Origin: Amoebophrya sp. A120
Taxonomy: Eukaryota; Protista; Dinoflagellata
DNA length: 64,000 nt
Assembly: GCA_905178155.1 (NCBI GenBank)
Contig: CAJINV010000003.1
Span: forward strand, 5,091,700 to 5,155,699
Direction: 5' to 3'
The notes beneath the pieces were generated by a model. The model worked only from the letters and a program-made list of their open reading frames with translations, made no database searches and was not told the DNA's origin. Both the position numbers and the translations under genes were made by a program. Below, piece after piece: positions 11,368 to 56,969 of the stretch (positions are counted from its first letter, which is position 1; every line of letters starts with the position of its first letter).

Positions 11368-14300
11368 ATGTCGCAGACCGGAAAAAGGCAGCTGATTCAG
11401 GTGCACCAGTCGACTATCAAATGCAAAAATATCTTGGTCTGGAAGGATACAAGATTTGTCATGCATGTTTCTCATGACCCATGATGCTTGTGATGCATGA
11501 CCTAGCATCGCAGACATTTAGAGGGCTTCCTGATGCACCTTCCGCATGAGAAATTCCCTGTCCGGGTAGCACAAACTGCACCCCTCTTGCTGGTCATGCA
11601 ATACAAATTTTTTTACCGTCCAAGAACAGCATGACAAGTTGCATTCTTCCAGACCCAGACATTTTTACATTTGATATCGACGGTGAACCGGATCGCAAAG
11701 GACGGGCTGCGGCCCCGGGAGTGGATTTTCAACACCCGCACGCGGCTGTATCCTGAGCAAAAACGTCCACACCCCATAGTCAAGTTGGAAAATCAGCTAG
11801 ACAAATCCGCCAGCTTTGGTTGTTTCGCATGACAGGTTTGTCCTCGTAGTGTAATGCTGTTTAGCTAGTTCAGCAGCATCACAGACCTAACATATCGCGC
11901 TTATTAAAGCATCACAAATGCCAAAGCACAGCGAGAAAATGCTTGGCATGGGGCTCCGCACGAAAAACTTTTTTGGCATGCAGGTTTGCATGACAACTCG
12001 GGGCTGGGGGCGTTTTTACACAGGATAGGCTGCGCACCGGCATCTTCCAGGAGTACGTGCTGGACTACAAAATCCTCGACGTCTGCCTGGTTTTCAAGCA
12101 GACCCTGGAGCCCGGGCGGGTGGCGGAGGCGGTGGCGATTCTGTGCGCGTGGTACCCGATGCTGGCCGGGCGCGTCGAGTTCAGCCACGACGTGGCGGTG
12201 GCCGGCGCGAAGAAGTGGGTCACCCACAACGACAAGGGCTGCAGTCTGGTGTTGGCCACCATGGAGGGCATGGGCTACGCGGACCTGCACGACCACGACC
12301 GCACGATCGACCACCTTAACTTCTGCGACATCGAGACGGACATGCCCAACAAGATCCTTTCGGGCGTGGCCCCCGTGATGACGGTGCAGCTGACGAAGTT
12401 GCAGCGCGGCGGCTGCGTGCTCGGGATCGCCCTGTCCCACTGCGTGTGCGACCACGGCGGCCTGCAGCAGCTGCTCCAGGACTGGAGCAAGCTGTACCAG
12501 GACCCGCTCGCATTGATCATGCCCACGGCGAACGTCCCCGACTGCTACTTCAACGCGCCCTCCGGCGGCGAGATCCAGGCGCACATGCGCACCCTGGGGC
12601 TGATGCGGCTATCAAAAGGAAAAATCCCCCCTCCCCATATCGAAACGAAGTTTCTGATGCTGGATTTCCATACACAAATCAGATTTGTCTTGCAGTAGAG
12701 GACTGCAGGCATATGCCAAGCCTCATTCGAGAGGTTTTGACGTAGGCGCCTAGCATGACAAACGCGTATGCTCTTAGCCCAACAGCATCACAAACCGCCT
12801 GCAAAATGCGGAACGCTTTCTGGACTTGCCTTCTTGCAAGACAGACAGGATTTGAGGTCACAAATGCGCATCACAAATTTTCAGACGGGCACGCTTTCGA
12901 TATGGGGAGGGGGGTTTTTCCTTACGATAGCGACTGGAGCGCAACCTAAGCAACCAGCTGATCAAGGACGCCAAGGTGGGGCTCAGCCTGATCGGCCAGC
13001 GCCTGGCCTCCCACTGCCGCGAGCGCCCGGACCACGTCCGGCTGTCCTTCACGAAGTTTCAAAAAGACCTGTTGATCAACACGGCCGCGAACGACGAGGA
13101 GATCGACCACAGTGTCACCACCAACGAGGCCGTGCTGGTGTACATCTGGAACCTGATGCTGGACACCATCGAGTTTCCCATGGAGCAGCGGGAACACCTC
13201 GCGGTCATGATGTACGTGGACCCCAGGTCACGGGTCTCGGAAGCCGATGTGGGCAGCAGAGTATAGCGTTTGTTTGTACACTTAATTGAGACTGAGCTTG
13301 AGTTTTTGTTTTTGACCTATCACGAAATGAATTATCGTGATTGTCTGCATGCTGTTACTAGGTGAACAGCGCTAGTACGTGCATGCAGAAATCGCATTGC
13401 ACTGGCGTTGTACAGGTTTTCATCAATAATCGCGATGTCAATGGTGCCGGTAAAAAATCCAAAACCATAAATTTTAACAGACCTTCGGGAGCATCATAGC
13501 CGGGATTTCAGTTCCAGTCAACATGAGAGGGTCGCTCGGCACGGTAACGAGCAGCGTTCATTTTAGCAGTCGAAAGGCGCTGAGGACAGAGAAAATCGCC
13601 GCCAGTGTCAAGATGGAGGCTACTATCTTCCCCGAAAACGAGTCGGGTGAGGTCCTGTTCAACCCCCAGACCACAACAGAAAACAGCGGCTGCATCGGAG
13701 AGTGGTAAGAGCACAGCGGGGATCTCTGTTTTTTTTTGCTCGAAGAGTTAGTTTATTACATTGCCTAGTTATTGCGTTGTGCGCACCTCCACGGGTAGTA
13801 CAGGTAGAAGCGAGGGTAATATTAAGGTATCAAATTATGTACTCGTACCCAAGAATATTTGTTCCGCGGTAATATCTAAACAGGTTCTACGGCGCACCAC
13901 TGCTGGATTGGCAGCGAGGGACCAAGATGGCCACGTTTGGCGCGGACTTGGTGCGGTGCGAAGTGGGGTACTCCGGTGAGGTATCAAATGCAAAAATGTC
14001 TGGGTCTGGAAACTTGTAATGCTGCGTTGGGAACAGTGAATGCTCTGTAATGCACCACCAAGCATGAGAAATATCTGCGCTTCTTTGTGTTGCGTTTTTC
14101 GCATTACAAACTGCGTTTTTGCATGACAGGCAAAAGGGTCTCTTCTTAGACACGGATCGCAAACTTTTTGGTCATGCCAGACAAGCATGACAAATATCGC
14201 AATCTTCCAGGCCCAGACATTTTTGCAGTTCATATGAGGGTGTAAAGGTGTCTCCCCGGGTGGACGGCGGGTTGGACGTGTACTTGACACGCATGGACCG

Positions 14301-14463
14301 CCTCTACTTCAACGGGTGGCCAGAGACCTTGGCAAAGTACCCCTACAAAGGGGCGTTCGTCGACGAACTGAAGAAGAGGCACGATTCCTGGTGCCGAAAA
14401 ATCAAGCCGCCGCGACGAAGTGCGTTTAATTTTGCCATGGGGCTGATGGACGCCCAACAGTGA
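11368..14463 (+). CDS. BAHD/HXXXD CoA-dependent acyltransferase-like protein
   Basis: WYPMLAGRV, PVMTVQLTKLQRGGCVLGIALSHCVCDHGG (HXXXD) and an ATFG motif near the C-terminus. Inferred exons 11368-11414, 11682-11748, 12033-12609, 12935-13260, 13481-13704, 13884-13981, 14240-14463. All four TIR-element removals are in frame. Confidence 0.8.
11415..11676. mobile_element. TIR introner, family A (262 bp)
   Basis: TIR tatcaaatgcaaaaat... / ...atttttacatttgata. TSD tcgac. Removal gives VHQSTVNRI. Confidence 0.93.
11749..12027. mobile_element. TIR introner, family B (279 bp)
   Basis: TIR tatcctgagcaaaaacgtcc / gggcgtttttacacaggata. TSD ggctg. Removal gives TRLRTGIFQEYVLDY. Confidence 0.92.
12610..12929. 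mobile_element. TIR introner, family C (320 bp)
   Basis: TIR tatcaaaaggaaaaatcccccctccccatatcgaaa / tttcgatatggggagggggtttttccttacgata. TSD gcggc/gcgac (1 mismatch). Removal gives LMRLERNLSNQ. Confidence 0.88.
13982..14234. mobile_element. TIR introner, family A, second subfamily (253 bp)
   Basis: Left TIR tatcaaatgcaaaaatgtctgggtctggaa; right end slightly decayed (...tttgcagttcata). TSD tgagg. Removal gives GYSGEGVKVSP. Can be read as GT-AG intron 13981-14238. Confidence 0.9.
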
Positions 14464-15291
14464 GCAGGCCACATCGTCGACCGGGGCACGTGTCATCTTG
14501 AAGGGCGAGGTTTAGAAAAAATCATTTCACGAAACAATTCAGAAATCTGTCCCTGTTCGTTGTGGTTTGTTTACAACATCTCTTGTAGTGTTTCTCATTG
14601 CACTTTACAGTTGATCTCAGTTTTTACACACATTTTTATTGTTCCCCCACCGAATACTGCGGTAGATAGGATTTAGAGCAAATTTAGGTCTCGCATAATT
14701 CCACAATTTTCGAATTCCAAGCTATTCCCGTTACTGGATCTATATCCTAGTTCCTACCGACAAAGAGTTGACTCGTGATTCCTTCCGAATTTGGTACACT
14801 ACACGAGAATGTTATTCGAAGAAACTTTTTGCCCTCTGATCTTTGTTGCTTCTTTTCTGTGACCCTGGTTCCTTGCTGCTGTTCTTTCGTGCAAAAAAAT
14901 TCACGATACCAAGAAGCACCAGGTGGTGCGGTATGTGAGAGATTTTTTTGCCTCCAGCTTCAGGGGCAAGCGAGTCGAGAGAGAGAGTGAATGAAAGTCG
15001 ACAAAAAGTCCAAAATGGCAAATGTAGAAGCGCCTTCTGCTAATCTGGCCCTCTCCCTCGGGACGAGCTTGAAATAATACAAGATCGATTGAAAAAATTA
15101 TCAATGCGGCCAATGAGAATTTACTGAAGCCTCGAAAACTAGCGTAGACGCGGCGGCCAGCGAAGTTTTTTTCGGGCTGTAGTTTGGTGGTTGTGCCCGG
15201 GTTGGGCTGTATCGCATACACATTTTTTCAGTGCAAGTTCCGGAATAGAGTAGCCGCAATATATTAATTTGTTATCGACGCTCCTGCCAAC

Positions 15292-21864: not shown

Positions 21865-22394
21865 AATAAACGGTTTTCGAGTAGTTCTAGCAGACTACAC
21901 GACTAGGGAGTAGACGTGTATAATGGGTAGGTACAGTATCTGTCTTTGACGCGAATATGAGTTCGTCTTGGCACGTTGAAAAATACTTGTGGGACGAATA
22001 CTTAATGATCGCCGTTTCGGTGATACGCGTTTCCGTTTTCCGTACAAATATCATTTCACTTTCTTCTATGCTAGCGGAAGTGATATCAACTGCACGTCGG
22101 TGTATGCGAAGTGATGCAACTTTTGGTCAGACTCTGATCACAAAAATGGTGTTCCATCACGCCACCACCGGGCGTAGCTACTGTGTTTCGCTTGAGAGAT
22201 AAAAATGTGAGGGAATTCAACAGAGCGGACAGTTGAAGTTTTTGTCGAGGTTTTCATGCCCCCGGTTCGACCAGTAGCATGCGGCCGAAGCCGATTCGAG
22301 TGAAAATGTACTAGAGGTTGAGAGGTCCTTGTTTGTAGTTCTTGCACCACAGCGTCTATTGTTGCGAGCGCTTCTTGCGGATCATACAAAAAAG

Positions 22395-33536: not shown

Positions 33537-36500
33537 ATGTCCGCGGTCTCCTCGGGTTTGCGCGAGGGTTACGATGTTGGGCAGTGGGGAAGTTGGCGGT
33601 CCCATTCCGTCTTGCTTCACGAAGCGGTCGCGGAGCTCAGTTGGGGCGAGAAGGCAGCGGCGCTGCTAGAGGTTTTCCGCCGCCACACCAAGACGAAGAA
33701 GGGCTATCTGTCCCGCACGGAATTTCACGATCTGCTGCGTCGGTACCCGTGCTGTGATGCCAATTACTTCGATACGTTTTTCGAGCTCTTCGACCGGAAC
33801 CAGGACGACTTTGTCAACGAGTCAGACTTTCTCGCCGGTATGCTCGCCGTTTCGCCGGGCACCCCGCACAAGGTGGGCCCGGAGTCCCCCGCGGGCCAGC
33901 TGCGCATGCAGTTCATTTTTCTGTACTACGACTACAATCGCAACGGCAAACTCGAGGTCGAGGAGCTACGACGCCTGATCGAGCACCTGTTGCGCATCCG
34001 CGGACAGTATCAACTGCAAAAGTGTCTGGGTCTGGAAGAATGCAACTTGTGATGCTGCATTTGGATGTCTAAAAAATTTGTGTTGCATGAGCAGCAAAGG
34101 GAGTGCAATTTTTGCTACGGGAAGAGGGCATTTGTCATGCGGAATAGGCATCAAGAAGGTCTCAAAAAATCTGTGATGCTAGGGCATGCACAACAGACAT
34201 CATGGCCCATGCAAAACGTGCATGACAAGTCTCAGAAATTTCCAGACCCAGACATTTTTACATTTGATAGACAGGATACGGCCTCTGCGGACCGCGACTC
34301 GCAGGCACTGCACGCACTGGGGACGGGCAACGAGGTGTTTGGGAACCAGTTCGGGTTCCACGCCTTTTTCGACGCCTCCGCACAGAAAATGCTGAATGGG
34401 ACTTCGCAGCTTCTGCGCACGCAGCGCTGCCTCGCCGAAGTGATTCGGCAAGCAGAGAGCTTCCACCAAAGCGGTCAGCACGAAGTGGTGGCAACCAAAG
34501 CGCTCTCCGCACTCCAGCGCGCGCCCGGCTCTCCGATCGGGATGCCGCGCGGCAAGCTGGGGGCGAGCGCCGTTGCTGGCTCGGTCTCCGCGCTGCAGGC
34601 TTCTTCACCCATATTGCCGCAGCCGGCAGCCCCGGAAACAGGCATTTCCGCGTCGGTGTCTGGAGGAGTACTGCGCGACGGGAAGGCGGGCGCCTCTCTT
34701 CTCGGTGCTTCCGCGGCATTAGCGGCTTCTGTGGATCACGTGGATGCTGGCAAGCAGGTTGCATCGACCTCTGATAGCCCACTTCTCGTATCATCGTCAG
34801 CTCGCGGCAAGCAAAGACCCGATGGCTCTGCTTCTGGTGGGGGGGCTTCTCAACTCATCTCGCAGGAGAGCACCCCGTCCGCCAGCTCCCGCACAGCTGC
34901 ACTGGATGTGGCACGCACGCAGCAGAAAACAACGCCAAGTACCACTACCAAGGCAGGACCAACATGTCCGATCGGCGGAGTGTCTACTAGTCCCTTGCTG
35001 CGGCGCCCCAATAGCCCCTTCAGCTTGGGAACAGCGGTGCTCATGCAGCAGCAATTGCAGGACCAGCAGCCGAGCGGCGCGCAAGGCATTGCAAAACAAA
35101 AGTTGCCTGGACAGCATCACGCTGCCACGACTTCGCCGACAAACAAACCGTTCGCATGGCAGGGCCAGCACAGCAATTACTTCGTCGAACCCGCCACGAA
35201 GTCAGCTGTTTGCCCGACCGAGTCGGCTCTTCAGCACGCGCTTGGTACAGGACAGCAGGGTGGCGGCAGCTCTAGCAGCACCTCGCCGCGCGGAGCCAGC
35301 GTGCGCGGCGTGCAATCCGTGGGCGGGGGAGGGCAAGGGCAAACAACTACTTCGGTTCTAGAAGACGACGACGGCCCCGTGTTGCGACAACCAAGTCACC
35401 AGCGACGGCAGCCGGCTTTTCACTGCTCTGTGGATACTTCACACCCACCTGGGAGCTTTGTCCACCGGAGGAGTACCGACCCCAATCAGTTCAACAAGCA
35501 CGCGGTCCGCGGAGCGCCCCCGCCCGCGTACAACTCACTTTCAGCAGATGATCCGGACAACGCGGTCTCGTGGAACACACCTGAGTACTTTTGGAAAGAA
35601 ACTGTGCTGCTTGCTATTTGATATCAGTCCATCAAAGTTGTATAAAAAGGAGAGCCTCGTCCTGCTATTGCTACAAGGCCGCAGCTTATGTCGCGTAGTG
35701 GGAGGGTGAACGAGTGGACAGGGGGGAAAGAAAAACGCCAGAGGATGGGCAAGGGAAAAGGTTTCTGAAGCAGGGCGGGGCCAAGCATCTGCGCCACTTC
35801 TTGTTGAAAGAACCAAGGCGGAGCGTCTTGGCGCCCGTGGTTCCCGTCGTTGTGCGAGCGCGAGGACCCCGCCCGCATTGGAAGCGCGCCCGAGGTTGCA
35901 GGCCTTAGGCCCGACAACGCAAAGGCAAAGCGCGGCAGCGGGCGGGCGCCAGTGAACGGGGGAAGGAAGCAGGAGAACACCCCGCGCCATGCGCGGCGCC
36001 TGCGCGTGACGCCCCGCNNNNNNNNNNNNNNNNNNNNNNNNNNNNNNNNNNNNNNNNNNNNNNNNNNNNNNNNNNNNNNNNNNNNNNNNNNNNNNNNNNN
36101 NNNNNNNNNNNNNNNNNNNNNNNNNNNNNNNNNNNNNNNNNNNNNNNNNNNNNNNNNNNNNNNNNNNNNNNNNNNNNNNNNNNNNNNNNNNNNNNNNNNN
36201 NNNNNNNNNNNNNNNNNNNNNNNNNNNNNNNNNNNNNNNNNNNNNNNNNNNNNNNNNNNNNNNNNNNNNNNNNNNNNNNNNNNNNNNNNNNNNNNNNNNN
36301 NNNNNNNNNNNNNNNNNNNNNNNNNNNNNNNNNNNNNNNNNNNNNNNNNNNNNNNNNNNNNNNNNNNNNNNNNNNNNNNNNNNNNNNNNNNNNNNNNNNN
36401 NNNNNNNNNNNNNNNNNNNNNNNNNNNNNNNNNNNNNNNNNNNNNNNNNNNNNNNNNNNNNNNNNNNNNNNNNNNNNNNNNNNNNNNNNNNNNNNNNNNN

Positions 36501-39500
36501 NNNNNNNNNNNNNNNNNNNNNNNNNNNNNNNNNNNNNNNNNNNNNNNNNNNNNNNNNNNNNNNNNNNNNNNNNNNNNNNNNNNNNNNNNNNNNNNNNNNN
36601 NNNNNNNNNNNNNNNNNNNNNNNNNNNNNNNNNNNNNNNNNNNNNNNNNNNNNNNNNNNNNNNNNNNNNNNNNNNNNNNNNNNNNNNNNNNNNNNNNNNN
36701 NNNNNNNNNNNNNNNNNNNNNNNNNNNNNNNNNNNNNNNNNNNNNNNNNNNNNNNNNNNNNNNNNNNNNNNNNNNNNNNNNNNNNNNNNNNNNNNNNNNN
36801 NNNNNNNNNNNNNNNNNNNNNNNNNNNNNNNNNNNNNNNNNNNNNNNNNNNNNNNNNNNNNNNNNNNNNNNNNNNNNNNNNNNNNNNNNNNNNNNNNNNN
36901 NNNNNNNNNNNNNNNNNNNNNNNNNNNNNNNNNNNNNNNNNNNNNNNNNNNNNNNNNNNNNNNNNNNNNNNNNNNNNNNNNNNNNNNNNNNNTGGCTTGC
37001 AAAATATTCCGACTTGCAAAATATTTCGACTTGCGAAATTTTTTGGCTGGCAAAATATTTCGACTTGCGAAATTTTCTGGCCTGCAAAATATTCCGACTT
37101 GCAAAATATTTCGACTTGCGAAATTTTTTGGCTGGCAAAATGTTTTGCGCTGCGAAATATTTCGAGGTGCGAAATATCTTGAGTTGTGAAATATTTTGCG
37201 TTGCAGAGTATTTCGCTTTGCGAAATATTTTAAGTGGCAAAACATTTCGCGTTGCAACATAGCCGGGAGCTGCTGGGCGATGGGAGCCGGGCGATGAAGG
37301 TCGGCAATCGAGCGATGGGAGTTGGGAACCCGTGCTTTCTGCTCTCCCCGTGCCGCCCGCTTTCAAAGCTGCAAAAACGGGGGAAGCGGTTTCTTCGGGG
37401 GGTTGATGTTGCGAAAAATTTTCTGGTCAGAATAGTTTCCGAGGGTGGAAAAAGATTCTGAGTTGCAAGATATTCCGACATCCAAAATATTTTGCCTCGC
37501 AAAGTATTAGTTTCGAAATATTTTGAGTTGCAAAATATTTTGCGTTGCAGAGTATTTTGATTCGCAAATTATTGCGAGTTGCAAAATATTTTGCGTCGCA
37601 AAATAGTCGGGCGATGGGCATTGGGCGATTGGAGTTGGGCGATGAAAGTTGGGAGCTGGGCGATGGGGATTGGGAAGTGGGCGATGAAAGTTGGGAGCTA
37701 GGCGATGGGAGTGGTGGCTAGTTTGGCGATGCGAATTGGGCGGTGGGCGGTGGGCGATTTCGCAAATCGCGAAACTTTTGGGACGTTTGAAAACTGTAAA
37801 AAAATTTTCGGCGTGGACGATTTTCCTCCCCGTCGCAAAATTTTAACTTCCGCAGCTCAGCAATAGGAGTTATATGCTTTGTTGCAGCTCTATTTTAGCT
37901 TGCCAGAATACTTATACTCAAACTCATCTAGAAGTTTCGTTTCCCTTTGTTCATCTACTGTAGGGCCATCGCGCTCCGGATCGTGCGGAAGGTGATGGAA
38001 CTGAGCAACGACCCAACGTTCGAGTGGCAAACGCGCCCCTCGCTGGTGACCGCGGAGGAGCTGATGGAGCTGTGCGACTCCGTGTTCGAGAAAATCTCGG
38101 AGGAGAACTCGCTTGTGCGTGTCGAGCTGCCCTGCCGCGTGTACGGGGACATCCACGGGTATGGAACTGTCAGGATCGAAATTGACAAAGTCGAAAAATT
38201 TGTGATGCATAAAATGCATGACGCGAAATACGTGTGTTGCAGAGCGGGCAAGTGAGGCCGATTGTGGGCCTGTTTGGGTTTATTGCTCGAGCTGCTAAAG
38301 CAGCATGAGAGAATCAGTCCTCTTTGCCTAAACAGCATTACAAACTGGATTTAGGCACCGCCAGAATTTGTGATGCGCCATTTAGAAACTGGGTTCGAAC
38401 TGGAATCCATTTTATGCATGACAAATCATTTCGCTTTTGTCAATTTCGATTCTGACACTTCCATAACGGGCAGCTGCCGGACTTGCTGCACTTCTTCAAC
38501 GCCTTCTCGTGGCCCGACAAGCGGCGGGGCGACATCTTTGCGATGAACTACATTTTCCTCGGGGACTTCGTGGACCGGGGCAATTACTCCGCCGACGTGG
38601 TCACTCTGCTGTTTGCGCTGAAAGTGCTCTACCCCAAGAAGATCTACCTCGTGCGCGGCAATCACGAGGACCGGTTGATGAACCAGAACTACGGATTTCT
38701 GCAGGATTGTCACTTCCTCTTCCCCGGCCCTGCTGTGGACACAGCAGGAGGTGGTGGGGAACAACTGCATGGAGAAGAGAAGGAAAACAATAACGCAACC
38801 GACGCCAGCAACGCGGAAGAAAACACCGTCGGGTAGAAACAAATAGTTGGGGTTGAAGATGCCTTGCCTTGTATACAGGCGGAAGTGCAGCTGCAAGGTT
38901 TTTTTGTTCGGACTCTCGCAAGAAGTAAAGAAATCGAAAAATATACGAATCAGGTTTCAGGTGTGGGAGCGCGTCAACGATGCGTTTGAATTTCTACCCA
39001 TCGCCGCACTGGTGGATGACCAGGTACTGTGCATCCACGGTGGAATCGGGGATTCGATCCACAGTTTGGACGACCTGCGCGACATCCCGAAGCCGATCAA
39101 GATCTCTCCCGAAATCACCGAGGAAACCACCCGGCAGGACAAAATCGTGTTGGACGCGCTTTGGTCGGACCCGACAGATAATGACTCCGTGCTGGGCGTC
39201 CACCTGTCCCCCCGGGGCCAAAACACCTGCCGCTTCGGCCCCGACCGGGTGCACGACTTCAATAAGCGGAACAACCTCAAGATGATCATTCGGGCTCACG
39301 AGTGCGTGCAGTATGGGTAAATAAAAGTGCTGGAAAATTTTGATGCTGCACATGAATGCAACTCTGATGTCCTACCAAGCGTTGTAATACCTAGATTGAT
39401 ACCAGCGCCGCGCCTTCATCTCTTTACGTAATAGATGTGTTGTTCGAAGTTTTCTTTAATATTTCCACTTCTTGGAGGACGTCGATGAAATCCATTCGCG

Positions 39501-41123: not shown

Positions 41124-44100
41124 ATGGTGACACAGAAACAAGAGCAAGCACCGTCAGTCGAGAAAAAGCCCGCGATTCCGCTGGGCCAGCTTCCGTGGGG
41201 AAGTTCGGAAGAAGAAGAAGGGCTGCAAAGTCATTCCGCCCGGGGCATGACGCTGCGGCAACATGAAGAGCAGGTCGAGGCAGAAGACAAAGCCGCACGG
41301 AAGCTGCAGGCTGTTCACCGGGGGAACAAAGACAGGCAGCGCGTGGAGCTGATGAAAGCCGGCGACGTGAGCCCGGCAGAGAGCGCGAATTCCGTGCACA
41401 GCGGGGTCTGGCATTTGTCGCACCAGCACGAGGAGCAGCGACTGGGGGCCGCTGCCACCAAGCTCCAGGCCGTGCACCGGGGCAATCAAGACCGGCAAAG
41501 GGTGGAGCTGATGAAGGCCGGGGATGTGAGCCCGGCGGAAAGTGTCGGATCCGGCCACAGCGGCGTTTGGCACATTTCGCACCGCCACGACGAGCAGCAG
41601 CGCGTCGAGGCGACTGCCGCAGTAAAGATCCAGGCCATCCACCGCGGTAACCAGGATCGCGCAGAGCTGGGCAAAAAGCACGATGCCGCAACGCGTATCC
41701 AGGCCGTACGCAAGGGGAACGTGGCACGCAACCAGGTCGATTTCATGAAGGCCGGAGCCTTCAGCGGAGCGGAGAGCGTGACTTCCCAGCACTCGGGGAT
41801 CTTCCACCTCGACCACCGGCACGAGGAGCAGACGCGCGCAGAGACCGCTGCAGCCCTGCAGATCCAAGCCCTGCATAGAGGAAACCGGGACCGAGAGGAC
41901 TTGCGACAGCAGCAAACCGCGGCGGCGCGCATTCAAGCGGTGCACCGCGGGAATGCAGTGCGCGCGGATATCCAGGAGCAGCATGAAGCCGCCAGCCGCA
42001 TACAGTCCGGGTTCTTTCGTAGCCGGAATATTAAAGATGCCACTGAAGCATCAGAAGCGAAGGGAACCGCTGGTCTGCGGAGAGATGAGCCGAGCGAGTC
42101 CGCCGATGAGATGGAGGTTCCGGACGAGGTGAAAATGGAAAGGTCGGACGCACCAACAACTGCGGAGCACGAGGCTGCGTCGAAAATCCAAGCCATCCAG
42201 CGCGGAAACGCGGCGCGGGCGGAGCTACAAGAGAAACAGGATGCCGCAGTACGAATACAAGCAGCGTACAAGGGCAATGTTGCCCGAGCGGAGCTCCTGG
42301 AACAGCACGAGGCTGCATCGAAGGTCCAGGCTGTGTACCGAGGTAACGCAGTGCGAGCTGAGATTCAGGAACAGCATGAAGCTGCAGCGAAGGTCCAGGC
42401 TGTGTACCGAGGTAACGCTGCGCGAACAGGCTTGCAGCAGCAGAAAGACTTTAGTGCCACTACCTCTAGGGTAAAGGCGGAGGCTCAAGTAGAGGGGACA
42501 CTTGCAGCGGATCCGGCGAACGAGGAGAAGCAGCAGGGCATGGTAGTGTCAAATATGCCCACCGGAAGCAGTGCGGAGCATGAGGCAGCCGTGAAAATTC
42601 AAGCAATACAGCGTGGAAACGCAGCGCGTGCAGACCTACAGGAGCAGCAAGATGCCGCAGTCAGGATACAGGCAGCGTACAAAGGTAACGTTGCGCGCGC
42701 TGAGATTCAGGAACAGCATGAAGCCGCAGCGAAGGTTCAGGCTGTCTACCGAGGTAATGCTACGCGCGATGAGATTCAGGAACAGCATGAAGCTGCAGCG
42801 AAGGTTCAGGCTGTGTACAAGGGTAATGTTGCCAGGGCCGAGCTTCAGGAGCAACACGAGGCAGCGGCAAAGATCCAGGTGGTCTACAAGGGGACCGCGG
42901 TGCGAGCGGATGTGCAGGAACAGCACGAGGCAGCCGAGAGGATTCAGGCGGTCTATAAGGGCAACGCAGTTCGTGCGGATTTACAGGAACAGCATGAAGC
43001 AGCCGCAAAAGTGCAAGCCGCGTATCGAGGGAATGCTGTCCGTGCGGAGCTGCAGCAAAAGCAGGCAGTTGTGGCTCAAGAGGCTCAACAAGAAGATTTA
43101 AGCGCACCGCAGTCGAGCATGCCGCTCGAAGAGAGTTCTGCTCTCCGAGAGCAGCACGATGCCGCTGCGAAAATTCAGGCTGTGTATAAGGGAAACGCCG
43201 TGCGTGCCGACCTGGGGGAACAGCACGAAGCTGCGTCGAAATTGCAGGCCGCGTATCGCGGAAATGTCGCCCGAGCCGAATTGGAAGAGCAACACGAAGC
43301 AGCCGCGAAGATTCAGGCCGTTTATAAGGGCAGCGCAGTGCGTGCGGATCTGCAGGAACAGCATGACGCAGCAGAAAAGATTCAGGCGGTGTACAAGGGA
43401 AATGTAGTGCGGGCGGACCTTCAAGAGCAGCACGAAGCCGCAGCGAAAGTGCAGGCGGTCTATAAGGGAAATCTTGCCCGAGCCGAGCTGCAGGAGCAAC
43501 ATGAGGCGGCCGCAAAGGTGCAAGCTGTTTTTAAGGGTAATGCCGCTCGAGCCGAGCTCTTGGAGCAGCATGAGGCCGCCGCGAAGGTGCAAGCGGTCTA
43601 TAAGGGTAATGTTGCTCGAGCCGAGCTTCAGCAGCAACATGACGCAGCAGAAAAGATTCAGGCTGTGTATAAGGGAAACGCAGCACGAGCGGAGCTTCAA
43701 GCGCAAGACGACGCTGCCGCGAAAATTCAAGCTGTGTACAAGGGGAGCGTCGCCCGTGCTGATCTGCAAGAACAACACGCTGCCGCCTCGATGATTCAAG
43801 CAGTATATAAGGGCAACGCTTTGCGTACCAATCTCGATGTTCGAATAAAAGATGGCGTGGTCACAGAGCGCCCCGTAAGTGAACAGAGGACACAGGCAGG
43901 CACTGATCCCGAGCAGGTGAGCCATCAAAATAGAGCCCTCAGCGAGCAGGACACTACATCACCAGCCTCAGCTTACTCAATAAGAGATCAGAGAATACGG
44001 AGAGGGGAGGGAGAAGCCCTCAGCGCAGAGGGGATCGATGACATGTCCGTGCGCGCGTCGGCGGCGGAAGCGGAAGAAGCCACTTCTTCAAAGGGCAGCC

Positions 44101-47719: not shown

Positions 47720-50700
47720 ATGAGTGCAGATGACAATCTCTGGGGCGCATGGCTGGATGTCCGCGATCGGGACATTGTGAAGGAGAATGCAGACGCGGCG
47801 TTTGGGCGGCCCCGGAGTGCGCCAAGCACGAAGACAGCGGCTACGCTGGCGCGCCCAAGCTCCGCCGCGGCATGGTTGCAGCGGAGGCAATCCGAGTTGC
47901 AGCGGCGCCGGGACGTCGCAGAATACACTGCCTCCCCGGGGGGCTCTCCGCTCCTCGGAGCGGAATACAATTACACGTCCGGTGGCAGCAGCAGCAGTAC
48001 GAATCCCAATCCGCAGCTGGCTGGTTCTTCTGCAACAACCGATGGACAACAAGTCGCAGCGCCGCGGGTGCAAAGTGCGACAGCACGTCCACCACATGGG
48101 CATTCAAGCCACCGAACCACAGGAGCTAGTACTGCCAACGGAGCAGACGAGGAAAATGTCCTGACTGCGCAACCACGCCCGAAGACGGCCATTGGGATTC
48201 CGTCTCGGTTTAAGGTGAACACACACCTGATAGACTTTTCGCGCAAGGGCTTGTCTCCCTCCTTCCGAACGGGCACCGGAGTAGGCGCAGGAGGAGCAAC
48301 AGCGAACAAAATCGGCAACGGCACCGGCCCGAGCCGCGGCGACGAAGACAACACGCCGCTGGGTGGGGCACGAGTTCTTGCGTCAAGAACCAGTGACCTT
48401 GCGGCAGCAGACGCGACCACCGCCAAACCGGCGATGTCGCCCATTGTTGAGGAATCGTCCATCCTCACTGCAGGGGAGGAAAATTTTTTGGAGAAGAAGC
48501 GCATTATGTGCGAGAAAAGTCCGAAAAAGAGTATTTTCTCGATGCTGAACATAGAGCCGGCCGCTGCGCAGCCTGAAGTCGTAGAAAAACCGAGCTCGTC
48601 GCCGGGAAATAAACAATCCATGCCGCGGACCCCAAGCCGGCTCCCCTCGTCGCCCTCGTCGTCACCTCTCGCCATTGCGCGCCAAGGCAGCACCGCGACC
48701 CTCGAGGTGGCCGCGGGTGAGAGCGGCGACGCGGACTCGGCGCAGCGGACCGCCGGGCCTCCCCGCAGCGCCAGCGCCTCGCCCTCGAAGCAAAAAAGCG
48801 GGGTCGAGTCGCCGCAGCAGATCATGGAGCGCTTGCAGAAGCGGTGGCGCGCGTACCTCGAGGGCATCGCCGCCGAAGAGGAGGCTCGGCAGCGCAAGGA
48901 GAACTGGAAGCGGCGCATGGCCGAGGTGGAGAGCAATCGGATGTCCGCACACGACCGTCAGAAGTTCTTCAACGAGATTCGGTACAAGGCGCAACAGGAC
49001 TCGCACTTCCACGGGCAGTATCAAATGTAAAAATGTCTGGGTCTGGAAGGTTGGAACTTGTGATGTGCATTTCACAACACAGAAAAATCTCTCATGCATA
49101 GGCGGCAAAAGGTGCCCATTTCCTGTCACCAAAATGGGGGATTTGTGATGCGGATTAAGCAATGCGGAAGCTTCTCGAAATCTGTGATGCTAGGGCTTCC
49201 ATGACAGGCATTCTGTGTCATGCAAAAACAGCATGACAAAAATCTGCATTCTTCCAGACCCAGACATTTTTACATTTGATAGGCAGTTCATTCTCGCGCA
49301 GGCCACGGAAATGCTGCACCAAAATATCAAATGTAAAGATGTCTGGGTCTGGAAGAATTCAGGTTTGTCATGCTTGTCCGGCATGGCTCTTAAATCTGTC
49401 ATGCACGTTACCCAAGCGCTCCGTTTTTCTGTGATGCAGCGGCGCAGTTTGTCATGCAGAATAGGCAACACCTAGGAACTCAGAAACTTGTCATGCTGAG
49501 CCAGCATTTGTAGCCTCATCATGAGACGCCACCCAGCATCACAAGTTTCCAGACCCAGACATTTTTGCATTTGATACAAAACGCGGAGCAACCACTGGAC
49601 GCCGCGCTGCGCTACCGGCTTCAAACCCTGCTCGAAAAGGCGGCTCAGGTCACCCACGGCGACAACGTGTCCGCACTGCTGCTGCTGGCTGCTCTTGAAG
49701 AAGAAGAGAAGAACTATACCAAGGCACGGCAACTGCACGCCACGATCGTCCAGAAAGCAAAGGAGGGAAACGAAATTGCGCTCACTTGCCTCGTGGAGGT
49801 TGCGGAGTTTCGGGAACGCCAAATACAACGCGACGCCGACAACCGCCGGAAACGCGCACGAAAAAAAAGCATGATGAAGGTTCTACTTCGTGTGTTGATA
49901 TATTCTGCTCCTGGAAACAAGTACAAGTAGAACAGCAAAGTACCAAATAAAAGCTTTGACCTTACTGATAGAATAGATGCTAGGACCGGATTGATTTTCC
50001 TATCCTGTCAATACTCTCGTTGCGGGTCGTACTCTTCGTTTGAAACTTACTTCTAGCCGCACTTACAGCTGCATAGCATAGAGTCAAAATCATGTTCAGG
50101 TTGTACCGAAGAAAAAATCGACAAATCGAGGGACAGCAAACGTCATCGCGGAGCTAGCGATGAAACGCGAGGAGGTTGAGCAGCCCATTCTGAAGTACAC
50201 GGTGCAGCAGGGCTTCCTCGAGCCCATGCGCAAGGCGCTGCTGCGACTGACCGCACAACACCCGTCCGACAAGCGGCATCTGGACAGCCTGAAGCGCAAG
50301 ATTGCGCAGGAAAAGGCAAAGGAAAACCGGGAGCATGCGCAATCTCTGGCCACGCTGAAGAAAATTTCGGGCGGTTTCTTCATGCAGGGCGCGGCAAAGA
50401 CCGACAACAGCGAAGTTTCACACATGGAGAAAATGCGGCTCAAGCTGCTACAGTCCACAAAGCTCGCGGTGGATGTGAATACCATGATGCAAAGCACCAG
50501 TTCCGTATCTAGGAAAAAACAACCATCCCCATCCATTTTATGCATGACAAACAGAGGACTGCGTGCATGCTTTGCATGACAAATTGGATGGGGATGGTTG
50601 TTTTTTTGTGGATATTCCGACGAGGAGAAGCGGCGAAGAGGCGCGCGAAAAAAGCCACTGGTAAGCGAGGACACCGTGGTGCAGTGGATTCCGCGCGAAT

Positions 50701-52917
50701 ACTATCAGAATGAGAAGGTGGCGTATCGAAGACAGATCGACCGCGGCTACGATGAGAAGTACAGTTTTTTACTGCAAATTTCTCACACGCATCGTTGCTA
50801 CAACGCCGGTTCGGTTGTGCTTGCAGCTCCGCCTCCCTCATGGGGTTTTGTAAGGTTTCTATAAGTAAAATTTTCTTGAACTTGATTTCATCTTCGCACG
50901 GCATTGATTTGTTCTCTCCACCGCGACAGGTTCGACCAGGAGGTAACACTGAATCATGCTGGCGTCATCACTTTTCACACGCGAATGGCCCGGGCAAACT
51001 TTGGACAGCAACGTATTACAGTGAAAAGTGCCCCCCACCCCCAAAGTTGCAAAAATTTGTGCTGCGAAGTTTCCAAATGAAAACTTTTTGTCATGCATGA
51101 AAGGAGGACGAATCTTTCTGATGCAGAGTCTAGTCGTGTTTCGCATCGCTTGCATGACAAGCACCGCTCTTCCTGGGATCTTTTGCAATACAAATTTTTG
51201 CTATTCACGATCGGAAATCTGTGATGCTGATACATGCAAGAGGGCGAATGTTTCATTTGGAAAGGTTTGCAATACAAATGCTTTCAAGTTCGGGGGTGGG
51301 GGCATTTTTCATTGTAATACAACGACGCCCACAAAAGAAAAAATCGCGAGGCCAGTCGCTGCTGAAGAAGGCGTCCACGCTATCCTATGTAAAAACGTAC
51401 CCACCCCATAGTTGTCATGCAATTCTGCATGCCAAAAAAGTAAAAGTTTCTCATGCGGAGCCCTATGAGAAGCATTTTCTATTCGTGTTTTGGAATTTGT
51501 GATGCTAGAATCAGTATGGTAGGCTAGCTCTGTAATGCTTCTGAGCTAGCGAAACAGGATTACACTACGAGGACAAACTTGTCATGCCAAACGACCAAAG
51601 CTGTGTGATTTGTCAAGCAGACTTGACTCTGGTGTGGGTACGTTTTTACTCAGGATACACGCAAATGCTCGCAACGGGGTACCTACACTTCGTATTTTTT
51701 TAGCTGCAGTGTTGTTTTCTCATTCTTTCGCACCATTTTTTCGCGGACCTGCTTTAATTTTTTAGTTGAGTCAGTCCATTTTCGTTTCACTCACATTCCG
51801 TGCCGACGCACACTGCGTACATGGAACAAATCGAAACAGTGCTTTGGTAGAAGATACTGCGGCAAACGTGCGCGACGGGCTAGATTCTCCGAAGGAGCCA
51901 CCGGAGGCCGGAAGGTTGCACGTGGAGCGTCCGCAGTCGACACTGATGAAACGACGACCGGACAGCGCGCCCTACCTGCGCACCTTGCACACATGGGACT
52001 CGAGTAAAGGTTTCGACGTTTTCTCGATGATGCACGGCAAATCCGAAGACTACAATCACGCCGTCCGAAGCGCCGCGACGCTCGTCAGTCGGCGGCACAA
52101 GCGCGCCGCCAAGCAATCCGCGAGTGTTTCGCCCGACGGCCGCAACAGTGAAACGTCGTCCCCCACCTTATCTCGCTCGCCCTCGGTGTCCCCCAAGCGT
52201 AGTGAAAAAGAAGAGCCAGGAGCTGCAGCACCAAAGGTCGTGGGATCGAGTTCCACTTCGAAGGAAAGCAACGCCATGACGCCGACTGTCCGCCGGGTTT
52301 ATTCTGTAAAGGAGAACTCATTCCGCTCGCTCTCTGCAAGTCCGTCAAAGCAACAAAAGGACAAGAAAGGTACAGACAATGTGATTGGTCGGGTGCGTGC
52401 TGTTTTGAGCTTCTGCTTCTTCCATTTTCTGAGAAAAATGAATGCATAGTTTTTATCGTCCGAAAGCTTGTTGCGCACTTATTACCTCGCATCGTGCTCA
52501 GAACTTCTTCTAAATGAGGAGCACGCGGCGACGGCTTATGTTGTCATCACCCGCGTGCCAGATGCGCAAGAGGATAGACATTTAGAAAAATATCGATCCT
52601 TGTAAATTTGCAACTACTCCACAGGCGAGCACCACCACGCCACGGGCCGCAGTTTGCTTGAGAGTAGCTTGAAGCTTGCGAAGCTACCGCCGAAGTTGGA
52701 TCCGGACGAAATAGATACCTACCCCGACCTGGATGTTGCGAAGCTGTTCCCCATAGAAACGAAGGTCCAAAACCACGATCCACGACGAGTTCGCCGTTCC
52801 TACGGCCTCGTTCCCACGGAAACGCCAGACCCTCCTGAGGACGACTTTGCGTTGCGAGCGCGACCACCAGAGCGGGCATCACCAGAGCACTGCTTCCGCA
52901 CTGCTGCCCAAAGCTGA
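47720..52917 (+). CDS. Large hypothetical protein interrupted by five TIR introners and four canonical introns
   Basis: Inferred exons 47720-49018, 49287-49324, 49582-49879, 50100-50505, 50620-50758, 50930-51013, 51325-51380, 51663-51678, 51840-52387 and ~52625-52917 join without stops. No domain recognised. Confidence 0.65.
49019..49281. mobile_element. TIR introner, family A (263 bp)
   Basis: TIR tatcaaatgtaaaaatgtctgggtctggaag / cttccagacccagacatttttacatttgata. TSD ggcag. Removal gives HGQFILAQ. Confidence 0.93.
49325..49576. mobile_element. TIR introner, family A, second subfamily (252 bp), opposite orientation to the 13982 copy
   Basis: TSD caaaa. Removal gives LHQNAEQPL. Interior aligns with the reverse complement of 13982-14234. 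Confidence 0.92.
50506..50614. mobile_element. Minimal TIR introner, family D (109 bp)
   Basis: TIR tatctaggaaaaaacaaccatccccatcca / tggatggggatggttgtttttttgtggata. TSD ttccg. Removal gives STSSDEEKR. Confidence 0.9.
51014..51319. mobile_element. TIR introner, family E (306 bp)
   Basis: TIR tattacagtgaaaagtgccccccacccc / ggggtgggggcatttttcattgtaata. TSD caacg. Removal gives FGQQRRPQKK. Confidence 0.9.
51381..51657. mobile_element. TIR introner, family B (277 bp), opposite orientation to the 11749 copy
   Basis: TIR tatcctatgtaaaaacgtaccca / tgggtacgtttttactcaggata. TSD cacgc. Interior aligns with the reverse complement of 11749-12027. Confidence 0.92.
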
Positions 52918-54084
52918 TTCAGCAAACACCCTCTCCGCGATCGGGTGTGTGGGGTGTCCTTTCGTCCTTCTCGTTTTTTTTTCACTTTCGTGATCTACAA
53001 GAGCCTCTCTCTATCGAGTAATTCCATGATAGCGCATTTGCTTTTTGTCCAAATTATACGTCGCTTTTCCATCCTCGAGACTGGTTCTGCGCAGCGAGCA
53101 GAGCAATCGTATTTTGCGAGTTGATTTTTTGCGATACGACTGCAGAATGTAGGTTTTTTGGCCTTCGTGCTGTGATCAAGACAAGTGAGCTAGTACGAAG
53201 ATGCAGCCTGCTCCTGTACTAAATTTGTGTTTTGTAGTCTCGTGCAGCCGACCAACGGTTCTAAATTTCCATGCAATAAATTGTTTGCCTATACTTACTT
53301 TGTCTTTGATGGTCCCCCAAGGGGCTTTGGATAGCGTGTTCATTTGGGTGCAACAACACTGCATTACTTATATCAATAACGTGCGGGCCTTGCATCCGAC
53401 CACCGACAAAGTTGTGTGATTGAGCGATCTATCAGCTTAGTCACTTTGAGAGGCAGTATGGCGTCAAGGCACCGCTTCGGCTATTGTCTCCGCACAAACG
53501 AGGGCTGAGTGTCGAAAACGTCTGAAAATCTTCTGTGGTACTAACTGAGAGGCATGCTCTGTAGACAGGACAAGCGGGAACGAGTGCAGCGCATCGTTCA
53601 GCGGGAATTGTGTTTTGAAGTTCTTTTGACCCGCATTGTGTGGTCTGCCCGCATTGTGTGGAACCTCAGTCGTTAGCTGCGCTTGTCGCTGCACTGAAAA
53701 ATACAAGCGTTTGGAAAAATTCGCGGGGCCGCACAGCAGCGAAGGAGCCAAGGAGTTGCGTCAAAGTACACGACCAAGTAGTGCGACGCATCCATCGATT
53801 GCACGGCAGAGACGAGCACTGTTGTCGCCCAAACTTCTCCGTCGGACGCTCCCTAAGAGGACATTGCGTAGTTCATCGGCTGCACCTGATGCTCTCACTC
53901 TTCGACACTGCTCAAGCACCGTTTTGATTCACAACCGGACCAAGAAGGCCGTGCGGCTTCGTCCCTGTGATTTAGATTAAAGCAGGGACCTGCTTCTCGT
54001 CGTGCACGGTACAACGGGAAGTGTGTGGCGGAAGATAAAAACTGTGGAAAAAGAACAAGCACCAGCACTGCAACTGGTACCAGG

Positions 54085-56969
54085 ATGGGGTGTGGCGTCA
54101 GCTCCAGCCAAAAGCCGGGCGACCTGCAGGTGCAGCAGTTGCGACGCCGACTAACGGTCGCACAGCTCGATAAGGTAGACGGACAGGAAAATGGCAATGA
54201 GGATGGCGCAGACGTCGAACGCGGTCTCTTGCAAAAGATATCGGATAAGAGTACTACAATTTATCTCAATCCATTATTTGCTAGCAAACAAAGACCACGA
54301 ACAAGATGGTGGTAGTTTATTCACCGAGCTGCACTATGAATGCGCGAATGCACGTATGCTCGGCAGCGTGCATTGATAATTACCTAGCGCGTGTTTTATT
54401 TCATTCGGGCAGCATCCATTGTAATCAATCCAACTCCGAGGTATCTTGGAAATCGCCGATGAATTGAGCAAAGTGCTAGACAATGCGGACAGCACAGAGT
54501 CACCGACAAAAAGTGCAAGCGGAAAGACACCGAAGAGGAGAGTCAGCATAGGTACTAAATCAATGATGAACGGACGATCTTTTTTGAAGCATCAGAGCGA
54601 AGACAAACTGGTTTTGCTGGGGAATGCAGCCGGTAGAGGTCCGCGCGCAGATGCCATATTACGGATTTTTCGAAAGGATGAACTATAGGGAGATGAAAAG
54701 CAACTACTGTGGTCACGACAGGCTCTGAGACAGACAAGAACGCCAACAAGCGACAGAGCTTCAAGAAGAAGGACGAGTACAGGATAGGAGACGACCTCGG
54801 CGAAGAAGAGATTCGTATCGGATACTCGTGCAGGAAAGGTTTGAAACCCGAGTCACCCAATCAGGATAGCTGGTTTGTCTTGCTGGTATAACTTCATATA
54901 GTCGATTTTTTGTTTTAGGATCGTCCCCTGCCGCGCCGGGGGTGTACATATTGGCTGTCGTTCCTGCCGCACCAACATCTACGGATGAAAAAAGAGCGTG
55001 AGGGACGGTCTGCGTGCTTCCTTATCGCGGTAGACAAAGAATTTGGTAGTTGCTGTGGATTTTGTAAAAAAGAATTCTGAAAAACATAAATCCCCAGCAA
55101 GAAAACGAACTTGGGATATACGGCGTTTTCGACGGCCATGGCGCTAAGGGGCACGATGTGAGCAATCTGGTGAAGTTGTACCTTCCCAAGCTCATCCTGA
55201 CCAGCGAAAAGTTTTCGGAAGCACCGGAGAGTGTGATGGTAAGTTGCTTCCATCGCATGCAGAACCTCATCCAGGCCCACGACCGCAAGGGCCTCCTGAA
55301 CGCCCAGCTCTCAGGGTGCACGTGCACCATCGTCGTTCACGACATGCGCGAGGACCGCCTCGTCGTTGCGCATGTGGGCGACTCGAGGGCAGTATTGGTC
55401 CGGAAAGAAGACGGGGGCGACAGGTCTTCAGTTCTTATCATTTGTTTTGCATGTCGTGCACGGTGCGGTTGTAACGATCTACTTTTGGCTTGTCACCTGC
55501 GGGTTCTTGGTTCATCTAATTACTCTGTGCGCTGGATCTGATGCACCATCGGTATCGGATATCATTGACTTTGATGATTTATGACAGGGTAATCGCTGAG
55601 GACTTGACCCGTGACCACAAACCCGACCTGAAGGAAGAACGAGCCTACATTGAGCGCAATGGTATGATGAAAGAAGTTTTTACTGCTTTCATCTTGAGTC
55701 GGTCGGGTGCCTCGTGCGTATGTACTTAGTAGAATACTTCTTCGCAAGTCAAACGATGAAGAATGCATCCTCCGCGGCGCTCAGATACTTTATACATAGA
55801 ATTTCACTGCATTATCGATCTGCAGGTGGTAGGGTAGCGTTTGACGGGTTCGCAAACCATCGTGTGTATGTGAAGAACGGAACCTACCCGGGTCTCAACA
55901 TGTCCCGCGCCCTCGGGGATCTCCTCGGGAGCACCAACGCGGGAATTAACAACACTCCCGAGGTGCGGGTGATCGACCTGCCCAGGAAGACGGGGGGTGC
56001 CCCCAATGGTTCAGCACTTTCTGCCGACGGCACCAGGGCCATTCTCCTGATCTGCTCCGACGGCGTTTGGGAATTCGTCTCCTCAAATCAAGCAAAAGAC
56101 TTCGTATTTTACTTTCTTCTGTGAAAAATCTCGCGTGGGCGTGGTCTAGTACTAATGGTTTGATGTTCGACAGGAATAGAACTACACGTACACGTCTTCA
56201 CGACGGACAACGTTTGATCACAATCTAACAGGCGATGCGGTTTGACGCAAGGCGTGCAAAGGATGCAGCCGAAACGCTGGCCAAGGAGTCTTGGGATCGC
56301 TGGATACATGAGTTATCGTGGAAGGCTTGAGGGCAGGAGAAACTGTTGTCTGGCCTTAATTGCTTTCTCTGAAATGCATGCTCTAGACTTGGACTACTTT
56401 TGCAACGAATTTTGAAATGACAAGTCTCCTTCTGCTAGGCATTGCCTACGCAGTAGGATCGGAACTCGAACTTGTTTTTTTCACAGCTTCAGAAAAGAGT
56501 GTCAGTTTCGGCAGAGCAAGTGTCAGCCAAATTTGACTTGCTCTCAAATTTTCCCAGAATACGAAGAGGGTGGCTGCGTGGTGGATGACATCTATCCTGT
56601 CGAAAAGCGACGATCCCACCCCAGACTTGTCATGCAGATTTGCATGCCCAGCAGCACGCGTCGTCTGACCCCCGATGGCAGTATAGTAATTTTCTAGCCG
56701 CTTTTCCTCGAGATTTGTCATGCTCTATTCAGCATAAGAAAGTGCGGCATGTGTGTATGATGCGGCTGAACTACCTCGGAACGACTGCCGTGCAGGTCCA
56801 AGTCAAACTTGTGTTAAAGTCACATAGTCTGTTTCTGCAGAGCCAAATACCTTGTCATGCAGCGAAGTTTCTGCATTTGTTTTGTTTAGCTGATTTTTAA
56901 ACATCTTTGCGGTGGAGTGGGTACGATTTCCGTCGCGATAACATTACCACATTGGTCATCTACATCTGA
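54085..56969 (+). CDS. PP2C/PPM-family protein phosphatase with predicted N-myristoylation/palmitoylation
   Basis: MGCGVSS start; motifs RKGLKPESPNQD, YGVFDGHG, SGCTC, AHVGDSRA, DHKP, GLNMSRALGD, ICSDGVWE and terminal VVDDITTLVIYI*. Multi-exon; the junction near 56310-56565 is unresolved. Confidence 0.85.
56593..56940. mobile_element. Diverged TIR introner (348 bp) splitting the PP2C DDIT motif
   Basis: Imperfect TIR tatcctgtcgaaaagcgacgatcccacccca / tggagtgggtacgatttccgtcgcgata. TSD acatc/acatt. Removal gives VVDDITTLV. Confidence 0.82.

Follow-up and report, generated by a model that had tools for sequence, protein, structure and literature searches.

Pairs of a shared internal motif in the introner families of Amoebophrya sp. 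A120 as probable binding sites of a common mobilising protein

Introduction

The introners of Amoebophrya have been described as elements with inverted repeats made of TAT, seven variable bases and AAA, with short direct repeats, non-canonical splicing, many families and hairpin potential (PMC7789003; PMC12130899, in the parts available to us). How they move and how they are spliced outside the GT-AG rule are both stated open questions in the available text of PMC7789003, according to which splice sites are variable, general mobilisation by a transposase is ruled out and no transposase was found in A120 by Farhat et al. In the available part of the 2025 dataset, at least 19 of 58 A120 family rows are assigned to superfamily 'Unknown', with target duplications (TSD) of 2-5 bp (PMC12130899). 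A preliminary description of a 64-kb stretch of the A120 genome, the whole of which we analysed and call the window, reported that elements with different terminal inverted repeats (TIR) carry the same internal motif, GCAT(G/C)ACA. What reads this motif, and at which step of the life of an introner?

Results

Thirteen introners in the window

In the whole window, 13 TAT...ATA inverted-repeat elements with 5-bp TSD were found, 12 of them by a motif-blind search, E13 being placed by hand (Table 1). They are non-coding, 109-489 bp long, and bear TIR and a TSD that is perfect in 11/13 elements and matches at 4/5 positions in 2/13; a perfect 5-bp TSD was also present in 308 of 413 homology-found copies. 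The TIR arms and interiors had been described as differing between families. The arms do differ, but all ends have TAT-N7-AAA(A) in common, and several families align as collinear scaffolds in which the motifs occupy matching offsets. A second assembly, closely related to the first, yielded 370 elements from selected loci that total 540 kb; there, A occupies tip positions 11-13 at 88-95% of ends, a few families (E7 type) deviating. Families insert in both orientations, one TIR (TIR A) is common to different interiors, and taking out E4 with one TSD gives an open frame. The summed contig depth reached up to 884,226 on TIR A, against about 45 in the flanks, a value that is not a true copy number.

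Short, non-coding, with TIR, TSD and high copy number, these elements have the characters of MITEs; with TAT, 7 variable nt and at least 3 A, a border direct repeat of 3-5 nt and non-GT-AG removal, they have those of Amoebophrya IE. The window elements are thus Amoebophrya introners, a class already known. One exon in the window encodes a sequence identical to a protein catalogued in the database under Amoebophrya sp. A120. No co-option of a target AG/GT was seen in the TSDs, whose composition is flat, and TIR A gave 0 matches with viral contigs. The raw-read run X9 covered one TIR with 134 partial reads and was uninformative on the window locus.

Table 1 Introners and aged non-canonical introns of the window, with same-strand motif sites and splice joints.
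Feature	Position	Strand	Remarks
E1, family A with 227-bp internal insertion	4521..5009	.	5/5 TSD; direct pair 4563/4595; joint 4515->5010 skips 494 = length+5
Aged intron	5231..5463	+	starts N-TAT, ends ATG-NNNN; without motif; joint 5229->5463
Aged intron	8408..8599	+	TIR/TSD lost, two moderate motif sites remain; joint 8407->8600
E2, family A	11415..11676	.	pairs 11457/11489, 11598/11629
E3, family B	11749..12027	.	pairs 11796/11827, 11876/11909
E4, family C	12610..12929	.	4/5 TSD; pairs 12653/12686, 12753/12785, 12836/12868
E5, second family-A interior	13982..14234	.	pair 14015/14046; frame open after removal
E6, family A, orientation opposite E1/E2	34008..34269	.	pair 34048/34079; frame open after removal
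E7, family D, inside phosphatase gene	38160..38465	.	pairs 38201/38233, 38303/38335
E8, family A	49019..49281	.	three pairs; contig coordinates imply excision with one TSD
E9, second family-A interior	49325..49576	.	chain 49366/49397/49430; contig coordinates imply excision with one TSD
E10, minimal 109-bp element	50506..50614	.	one pair 50542/50574; excision inferred from contig coordinates
E11, family F	51014..51319	.	pairs 51058/51089, 51152/51185; excision inferred from contig coordinates
E12, family B, orientation opposite E3	51381..51657	.	pairs 51498/51531, 51580/51611; 15-letter exon bridge in RNA-like contig
Aged intron	56313..56565	+	N-TAT...ATA-NNNN; without TSD, without motif; joint 56312->56566, both=0
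E13, diverged B-like	56593..56940	.	4/5 TSD; three exact motif sites without an intact pair; joint 56587->56941 skips 353 = length+5

A shared motif arranged in pairs

GCAT(G/C)ACA occurs at 42 exact sites in the 13 elements (2-6 per element), compared with a mean of 0.64 and a maximum of 3 in 500 draws of a first-order Markov null. The shared array is therefore real, and the 109-bp element does keep the two copies attributed to it; the range first given went from the start of E2 to the end of E13 and left out E1 upstream. The full consensus is the 10-letter GCAT(G/C/T)ACARR. The top 8-mer common to 7/7 groups, GCATGACA, was found 27 times in element interiors versus 2 times in the 59.3 kb outside, and a PWM trained on the same elements gave 64 strong sites in their 3,726 nt. 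The motif had looked rare by eye in ordinary introns, and the 21 GT-AG introns (4,520 nt; joints were observed for 17, and the other 4 were deduced from contig coordinates) indeed contained 0 exact and 0 strong PWM sites. In the second assembly, 247 of 253 elements recovered without use of the motif carry it. Of 143 loci retrieved by the motif pattern, 140 came from one related assembly; the other three, metagenome loci from other assemblies, were without an element and were dropped. A literature search on the literal motif returned unrelated titles among the matches listed.

The unit of this array is a same-strand motif pair, 31-33 bp apart. Such pairs were present in 12/13 window elements and in 16/17 family consensuses (2.9 on average and at most 9 in 5,000 null draws), and the same-strand distances of the 253 motif-independent elements numbered 142 at 31-33 bp versus only 2 at 21-29. 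The spacing of a few tens of bp first reported was thus right in scale, but it is fixed rather than loose. Because of the common ancestry of the families and the close kinship of the second assembly, these spacings are not independent events. Matched with the next unit, the 27 consensus spacers agree at only 27%, so that the pairs are not recent tandem copies, and a tandem-duplication origin was rejected because spacers are unrelated between units. Between families, pair number and orientation are rearranged and the 31-33 bp spacing is kept.

The periodicity check proposed at the outset gave a peak of phase coherence at 10.25-10.5 bp, with -0.06 at 11. Between pairs the phasing is modest (p=0.008), a 9.5-bp period fitting equally well as 10.5, and family A often has a 39-bp spacing; both count against the reading that we prefer below. 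Measured from the element end, the first site facing inward is mostly found at 32-33, 40-44 or 52-55 bp; at 8/34 ends the first site faces outward, which also counts against that reading. In being repeated, conserved and set at constant distances from the ends, the sites resemble subterminal transposase-binding repeats; their binding by a transposase and their role in mobility are predicted.

The motif changes less than its surroundings

The motif bases vary about three times less than the spacers, and motif identity (0.78-1.00) exceeded spacer identity (0.48-0.79) in 13/13 pairwise comparisons. Copy-specific changes affected about 3.7-4.2% of the core motif and 10.7% of the spacers, compared with 7.8% at TIR positions 15-30 and about 3% at tip A-tract positions 11-13; CpG was ruled out as the cause of the motif/spacer contrast. 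Common alleles were 7.5-fold fewer in the core than in the spacers, private alleles only about 2-fold.

The common protein-binding code that had been proposed, for a transposase on DNA or for an RNA factor, is supported by the enrichment of the motif, by its conservation relative to adjacent bases and by the constant spacing of the pairs; the DNA option is favoured and the RNA option disfavoured (see below), with a transposase as the presumed reader. On these sequence patterns, we consider it probable that a single mobilising protein, either a transposase or its dedicated partner, serves all these MITE-like introner families and binds the GCAT(G/C/T)ACARR pairs as double-stranded DNA.

A less likely explanation, which nevertheless survives best among the others, is that a DNA-binding or chromatin protein of the host occupies the pairs and acts after insertion (packaging, silencing or co-transcriptional loading of splicing factors), the host tolerating carriers. 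Strand symmetry and helical spacing would be explained equally well. Private changes in the motif are 0.39-0.58x those of conserved spacer columns and lowest in older-looking copies, which fits a host protein and counts against a mobilising one; the trend of a TSD-clock test has the same sign, but this test was underpowered (extra change of 0.06% in the core, CI -0.84 to 1.03, and 0.97% in spacers, CI -0.64 to 2.65). However, shared alleles are far more depleted than private ones, aged introns shed sites while splicing persists, the distances between sites and transposon tips are fixed, and strong sites are nearly absent elsewhere in the window (1/45 PWM hits outside elements scores >=13), all of which argue against a host function. 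The mobilising protein is so far only a candidate, a point in favour of the host explanation: no autonomous element or transposase was found in the approximately 0.5 Mb searched, and the 113 locus ORFs (from 196 of >=190 aa) gave no transposase/integrase Pfam match. Eleven TIR pairs >600 bp, considered as autonomous elements, resolved into fortuitous pairings, elements nested in one another or elements that had received insertions, and among 15 orphan ends the one read fully was an ordinary 150-bp element.

Splicing does not depend on the motif in two aged introns

Seven of the 11 elements compared with RNA-like contigs (E1-E5 and E8-E13) were cut out precisely, two as direct joints and five from contig coordinates; these contigs are from one sample, and their RNA nature is guessed, none of the listed runs being recorded as RNA. 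For E2-E5 no joint was present among the rows listed, which is not evidence of retention. E1 is spliced despite its 227-bp insertion. Among three aged non-canonical introns, a small sample, two are spliced without the motif, both at a contig depth equal to that of neighbouring GT-AG joints. The TSD-less one at 56313..56565 places the cut at N-TAT...ATA-NNNN without ambiguity. Changes in the terminal TAT versus ATA showed no 5'/3' asymmetry (20 vs 21).

These data bear on the possibility that the motif is an RNA mark, a splicing enhancer or stem-building repeat, recruiting a non-canonical excision factor. A long terminal stem folds in the elements (E8, z=-9.1), the outermost sites face each other in many families and could lengthen it, GT-AG introns are without the motif, and U1 snRNA is undetected in these genomes according to the available text of PMC7789003. 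On the sense strand, however, motif orientation is even (342 vs 326, the strand being inferred from a codon model), the bias tested per family is significant in 0/12, and asymmetric families are found in both orientations. No RNA wobble selection was seen in the TIR stems (G-U 164 vs A-C 156), and the best period is 10.25-10.5, not 11. Both properties of an RNA splicing enhancer, strand-specific presence and need for excision, thus failed, and the lack of strand bias together with the two motif-free introns still spliced makes an RNA mark improbable. Although several families are collinear and TIR A has different interiors, a functionless relic of common ancestry or of an old tandem duplication is very improbable and largely refuted by a motif far better conserved than spacers in every comparison, by spacers unrelated between units, by a spacing kept despite rearranged pairs and by a contrast not due to CpG.

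Discussion

The preferred reading, a shared mobilising protein bound to the motif pairs, suggests the following mechanism. We infer that a dimer or two-domain protein would read the pair three helical turns apart, in phase with B-DNA, and that the TAT-N7-AAA tip, the putative site of cutting and of staggered 5-bp integration, would lie 3, 4 or 5 turns away from it. The TA...TA ends and the 5-bp TSD would suggest an integrase-like DDE enzyme. Lineages retaining their sites would continue to multiply, so that the motif would outlast spacers and TIR arms. Splicing would follow a separate code at the tips, with the 5' cut 1 nt before TAT and the 3' cut 4 nt after ATA, the element TAT likely replacing the +2..+4 letters (TAY) of the host GTAY donor.

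The shared site argues for the families being one system. A broader proposal, which we advance tentatively and judge somewhat less likely to hold than to fail, is that all TAT...ATA introner families of this lineage constitute a single transposon system within an integrase-like superfamily not yet described; the specificity of the system would lie in the TAT-N7-AAA tip and the helically phased site pairs, an RSS-like tip-spacer-site arrangement, and not in the TIR arms; the same tip would be the position-measured splice signal N-TAT...ATA-NNNN. With the tip doubling as splice signal, insertion in any sequence and in either orientation would make an instant intron. The shared spaced site can be used as bait for the mobilising protein and to search for autonomous elements, and the fixed cut geometry, if general, offers a testable rule replacing 'variable splice sites' and usable in gene annotation.

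The window elements resemble published Amoebophrya introners in TAT-N7-AAA ends, direct repeats, non-canonical splicing, many families and hairpin potential; the available parts of PMC7789003 and PMC12130899 describe no shared internal motif or spacing, whereas the window elements have both, and their constant 5-bp TSD and fixed cut differ from the published TSD calls of 2-5 bp and variable splice sites. In the Emigrant MITE, Lemi1 proteins bind subterminal repeats cooperatively, and similar binding is cited for mariner-like elements, Sleeping Beauty, pogo, CACTA and hAT (PMC1636448, available in part). Both systems have short internal repeats in both orientations beyond the TIR, the binding of the window sites being predicted by analogy. 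According to the same text, Emigrant repeats copy the 3' half of their own family TIR, whereas the introner site is not a TIR copy and is common to families with near-random TIR arms (0.34 identity); unlike in Emigrant, the introner sites fill the whole interior with pairing fixed at 31-33 bp.

The nonconventional introns of euglenids, an unrelated lineage, are likewise MITE-like and without GT-AG, their ends pairing at a constant offset from the cuts, and an internal paired motif goes unmentioned in the available text (PMC11282704); they pair +4..+6 with -8..-6, where introners pair +2..+4 (TAT) with -7..-5 (ATA). Finally, likenesses are offered by integrase-like DNA transposons (IS3EU/GingerRoot, IS481EU and Ginger2), among which TA...TA or TNT...AYA termini and little target-sequence preference occur (PMC10045372, PMC6839031). 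IS3EU/GingerRoot agrees in its TA...TA termini but has a TSD of 6 bp against the introner 5 bp (spliced skips equal length+5), and IS481EU agrees in its TNT...AYA termini but has a TSD of about 4/15/25 bp. Ginger2/TDD ends in TG...CA and not in TAT...ATA, whereas its 4-5 bp TSD would fit that of the introners.

Motif in the introner elements

The window elements E1-E13 were searched for without the motif, as TAT...ATA pairs with ends complementary at 14/20 positions or more. Twelve were recovered at 17-20 of 20 complementary positions, together with weaker matches (chance-level pairs, one 17-bp tandem array and two cross-pairings), and E13 was added by hand. All 13 carry a 5-bp target duplication (TSD), perfect in 11. 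The leading 8-mer common to all 7 groups, GCATGACA, occurred 27 times in elements and twice outside. The internal GCAT(G/C)ACA array of the preliminary description was confirmed by 42 exact sites in the elements (0.64 under the null), as was its rarity in ordinary introns, with no exact site in the 21 GT-AG introns of the window. PWM iteration led to GCAT(G/C/T)ACARR with a T-rich tail behind it. The elements contain 82 sites of this kind, and the 59 kb outside gave 45 matches, mostly weak.

One exon of the window shows complete identity to a database protein whose label reads Amoebophrya sp. A120, and the element ends agree with the published A120 introner element description (PMC7789003); the elements themselves are already known. 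Runs X3-X6, one sample, were taken as RNA by guess, yet their contigs join across GT-AG introns; they omit E1 and E13 by exactly length + 5. Record coordinates demand the same skip for E8-E12 (the predictions, 339 and 299 nt, both equal the observed values), whose removal yields a 954-codon open frame. In the DNA run X1, depth was about 45-fold in the flanks, and summed depth on the family A terminal repeat (TIR A) reached 884,226, which is not a count but suggests very many copies.

Positions of features in the window
Feature	Position	Observation
Aged non-canonical introns	5231-5463, 8408-8599, 56313-56565	Spliced joints, no TSD
E1 insertion, 227 bp	4717-4962	19-bp direct duplication at borders, TTTAGGG-like repeats within; E1 splicing stays exact
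E4, 113 nt omitted in low-depth contig	12663-12777	Probably reflects a copy at another locus with part of its interior deleted
TIR A linked in DNA contigs to E13/B-type subterminal sequence	49046-49053, 56621	Hints at modular recombination between TIR arms and interiors
GT-AG intron with 119-nt inverted repeat	7814-8342	Motif absent; possibly another element or assembly duplication, as for 1-255
Duplication	7796-8050, 1-255	Exact
Similar segments	257-529, 10380-10649	
Tandem array, 17 bp	37002-37712	Beside N gap, with short GGGCGATG repeats
Coding repeats, 69 bp	41931-43868	Within long exon, IQ-like by eye

Pair spacing in a second genome

Metagenome contigs were queried with a pattern joining a motif pair to the TAT-N7-AAA element end (tip), and at least 144 stretches matched; among the matches listed, 140 of 143 loci belong to one assembly. 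Those loci contain 370 non-overlapping elements, 253 of them without a match to the search pattern. With the PWM trained on the window, a strong site was found in 247 of these 253, at 13.75 strong sites per kb compared to 1.57 in the background, where 497 of 581 matches were clustered and are probably undetected elements. Interior homology recovered 88 further copies. Since 12/13 window elements have interior matches there at 75-99.6% identity, the second genome is that of a close relative, giving more loci and no phylogenetic independence.

The sites, previously placed a few tens of bp apart, are indeed repeated, and their spacing is sharper: same-strand distances in the 253 elements peaked at 31 (86 counts), 32 (37), 33 (19), 39 (34) and 82-86 bp, with 2 counts from 21 to 29 bp. 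A 31-33 bp direct pair was present in 16/17 family consensuses and 12/13 window elements, and the smallest family (109 bp) consists of two TIRs and one pair. Spacers matched the next unit at 27% (27 consensus pairs). Measured from the tip, the first site to read inward falls at 32-33, 40-44 or 52-55 bp, and an outward-reading site comes first at 8 of 34 family ends. The helix repeat is 10.5 bp in B-DNA and 11 bp in A-form; a design of tip, spacer and site would be analogous to an RSS. Overall phase coherence was highest at 10.25-10.5 bp; with pairs as rigid units, between-unit phasing was less marked, at 0.34 (p=0.008), and a period of 9.5 bp was equally good. At TIR positions 15-28, both ends of one family were 0.90 alike, compared with 0.34 for different families. 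Across loci L001-L143, TIR arms were self-complementary within families and near-random from one family to another; the left and right arms of the same copy covaried slightly (0.828 versus 0.816 shuffled).

Conservation of the motif

Motif identity exceeded spacer identity in 13/13 window comparisons, several nearly gap-free. In 284 copies selected without the pattern, copy-specific changes affected about 4% of core bases and 10.7% of spacers, so that the motif is kept better than neighbouring bases; TIR values were 14% at positions 4-10, about 3% at 11-13 and 7.8% at 15-30. Judged by this conservation, the motif is real and functional. Core depletion relative to spacers was 7.5-fold for common and about 2-fold for private alleles, and the stronger depletion of common alleles fits selection among transposing lineages. 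Private alleles, however, are still depleted in copies that look older, and the TSD clock does not separate the alternatives, so the motif may have a role after insertion. CpG spacer sites in L001-L143 changed faster where TSDs mismatch (16-19% versus 10-11%), suggesting methylation-driven decay after insertion.

Splice geometry and the probable function of the pair

We infer that the three TSD-less non-canonical introns are aged elements. Their joints start with N-TAT and end with ATA (or ATG) plus four bases; together with E13, these four informative junctions allow only a 5' cut 1 nt before TAT and a 3' cut 4 nt after ATA. Because canonical donors in the window are mostly GTAY (A at +3 and pyrimidine at +4, each in 19/21), the element TAT at +2 to +4 likely supplies the donor signal, the first base being free.

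The 'common protein-binding code' proposed earlier left a choice between a transposase on DNA and an RNA excision factor. On the sense strand inferred by a codon model (131/133 agreement with neighbouring elements), the motif counts in the two orientations were 342 and 326, with no significant bias in any of 12 families. Nothing in two of the aged introns exceeds a site score of 5.3, the third has two moderate sites, and all three are spliced. Orientation and motif-poor spliced introns argue against the RNA mark and favour the DNA option. TIR mismatches were G-U in 164 cases and A-C in 156. The pair is rather likely a double-stranded DNA site for one shared mobilising protein, which would sit on it a whole number of helical turns from the conserved tip, with integration staggered by 5 bp.

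Comparison with known systems

The TA...TA termini and TSD length provide a lead towards an integrase-like DDE enzyme. Membership tests placed the elements in none of the named transposon superfamilies, and a search of about 0.5 Mb revealed no autonomous element. The literature searched, which included PMC12130899, PMC9860276, PMC11282704, PMC12005148, PMC10045372 and PMC6839031, held, as far as its text was accessible, no description of the motif, its 31-33 bp pairing or the fixed cut, which are new relative to it; figures S19-S25 of PMC7789003, outside that text, may bear on the cut position. In MITEs, subterminal transposase-binding repeats are known (PMC1636448), and the conserved internal sites of the introner elements resemble them.
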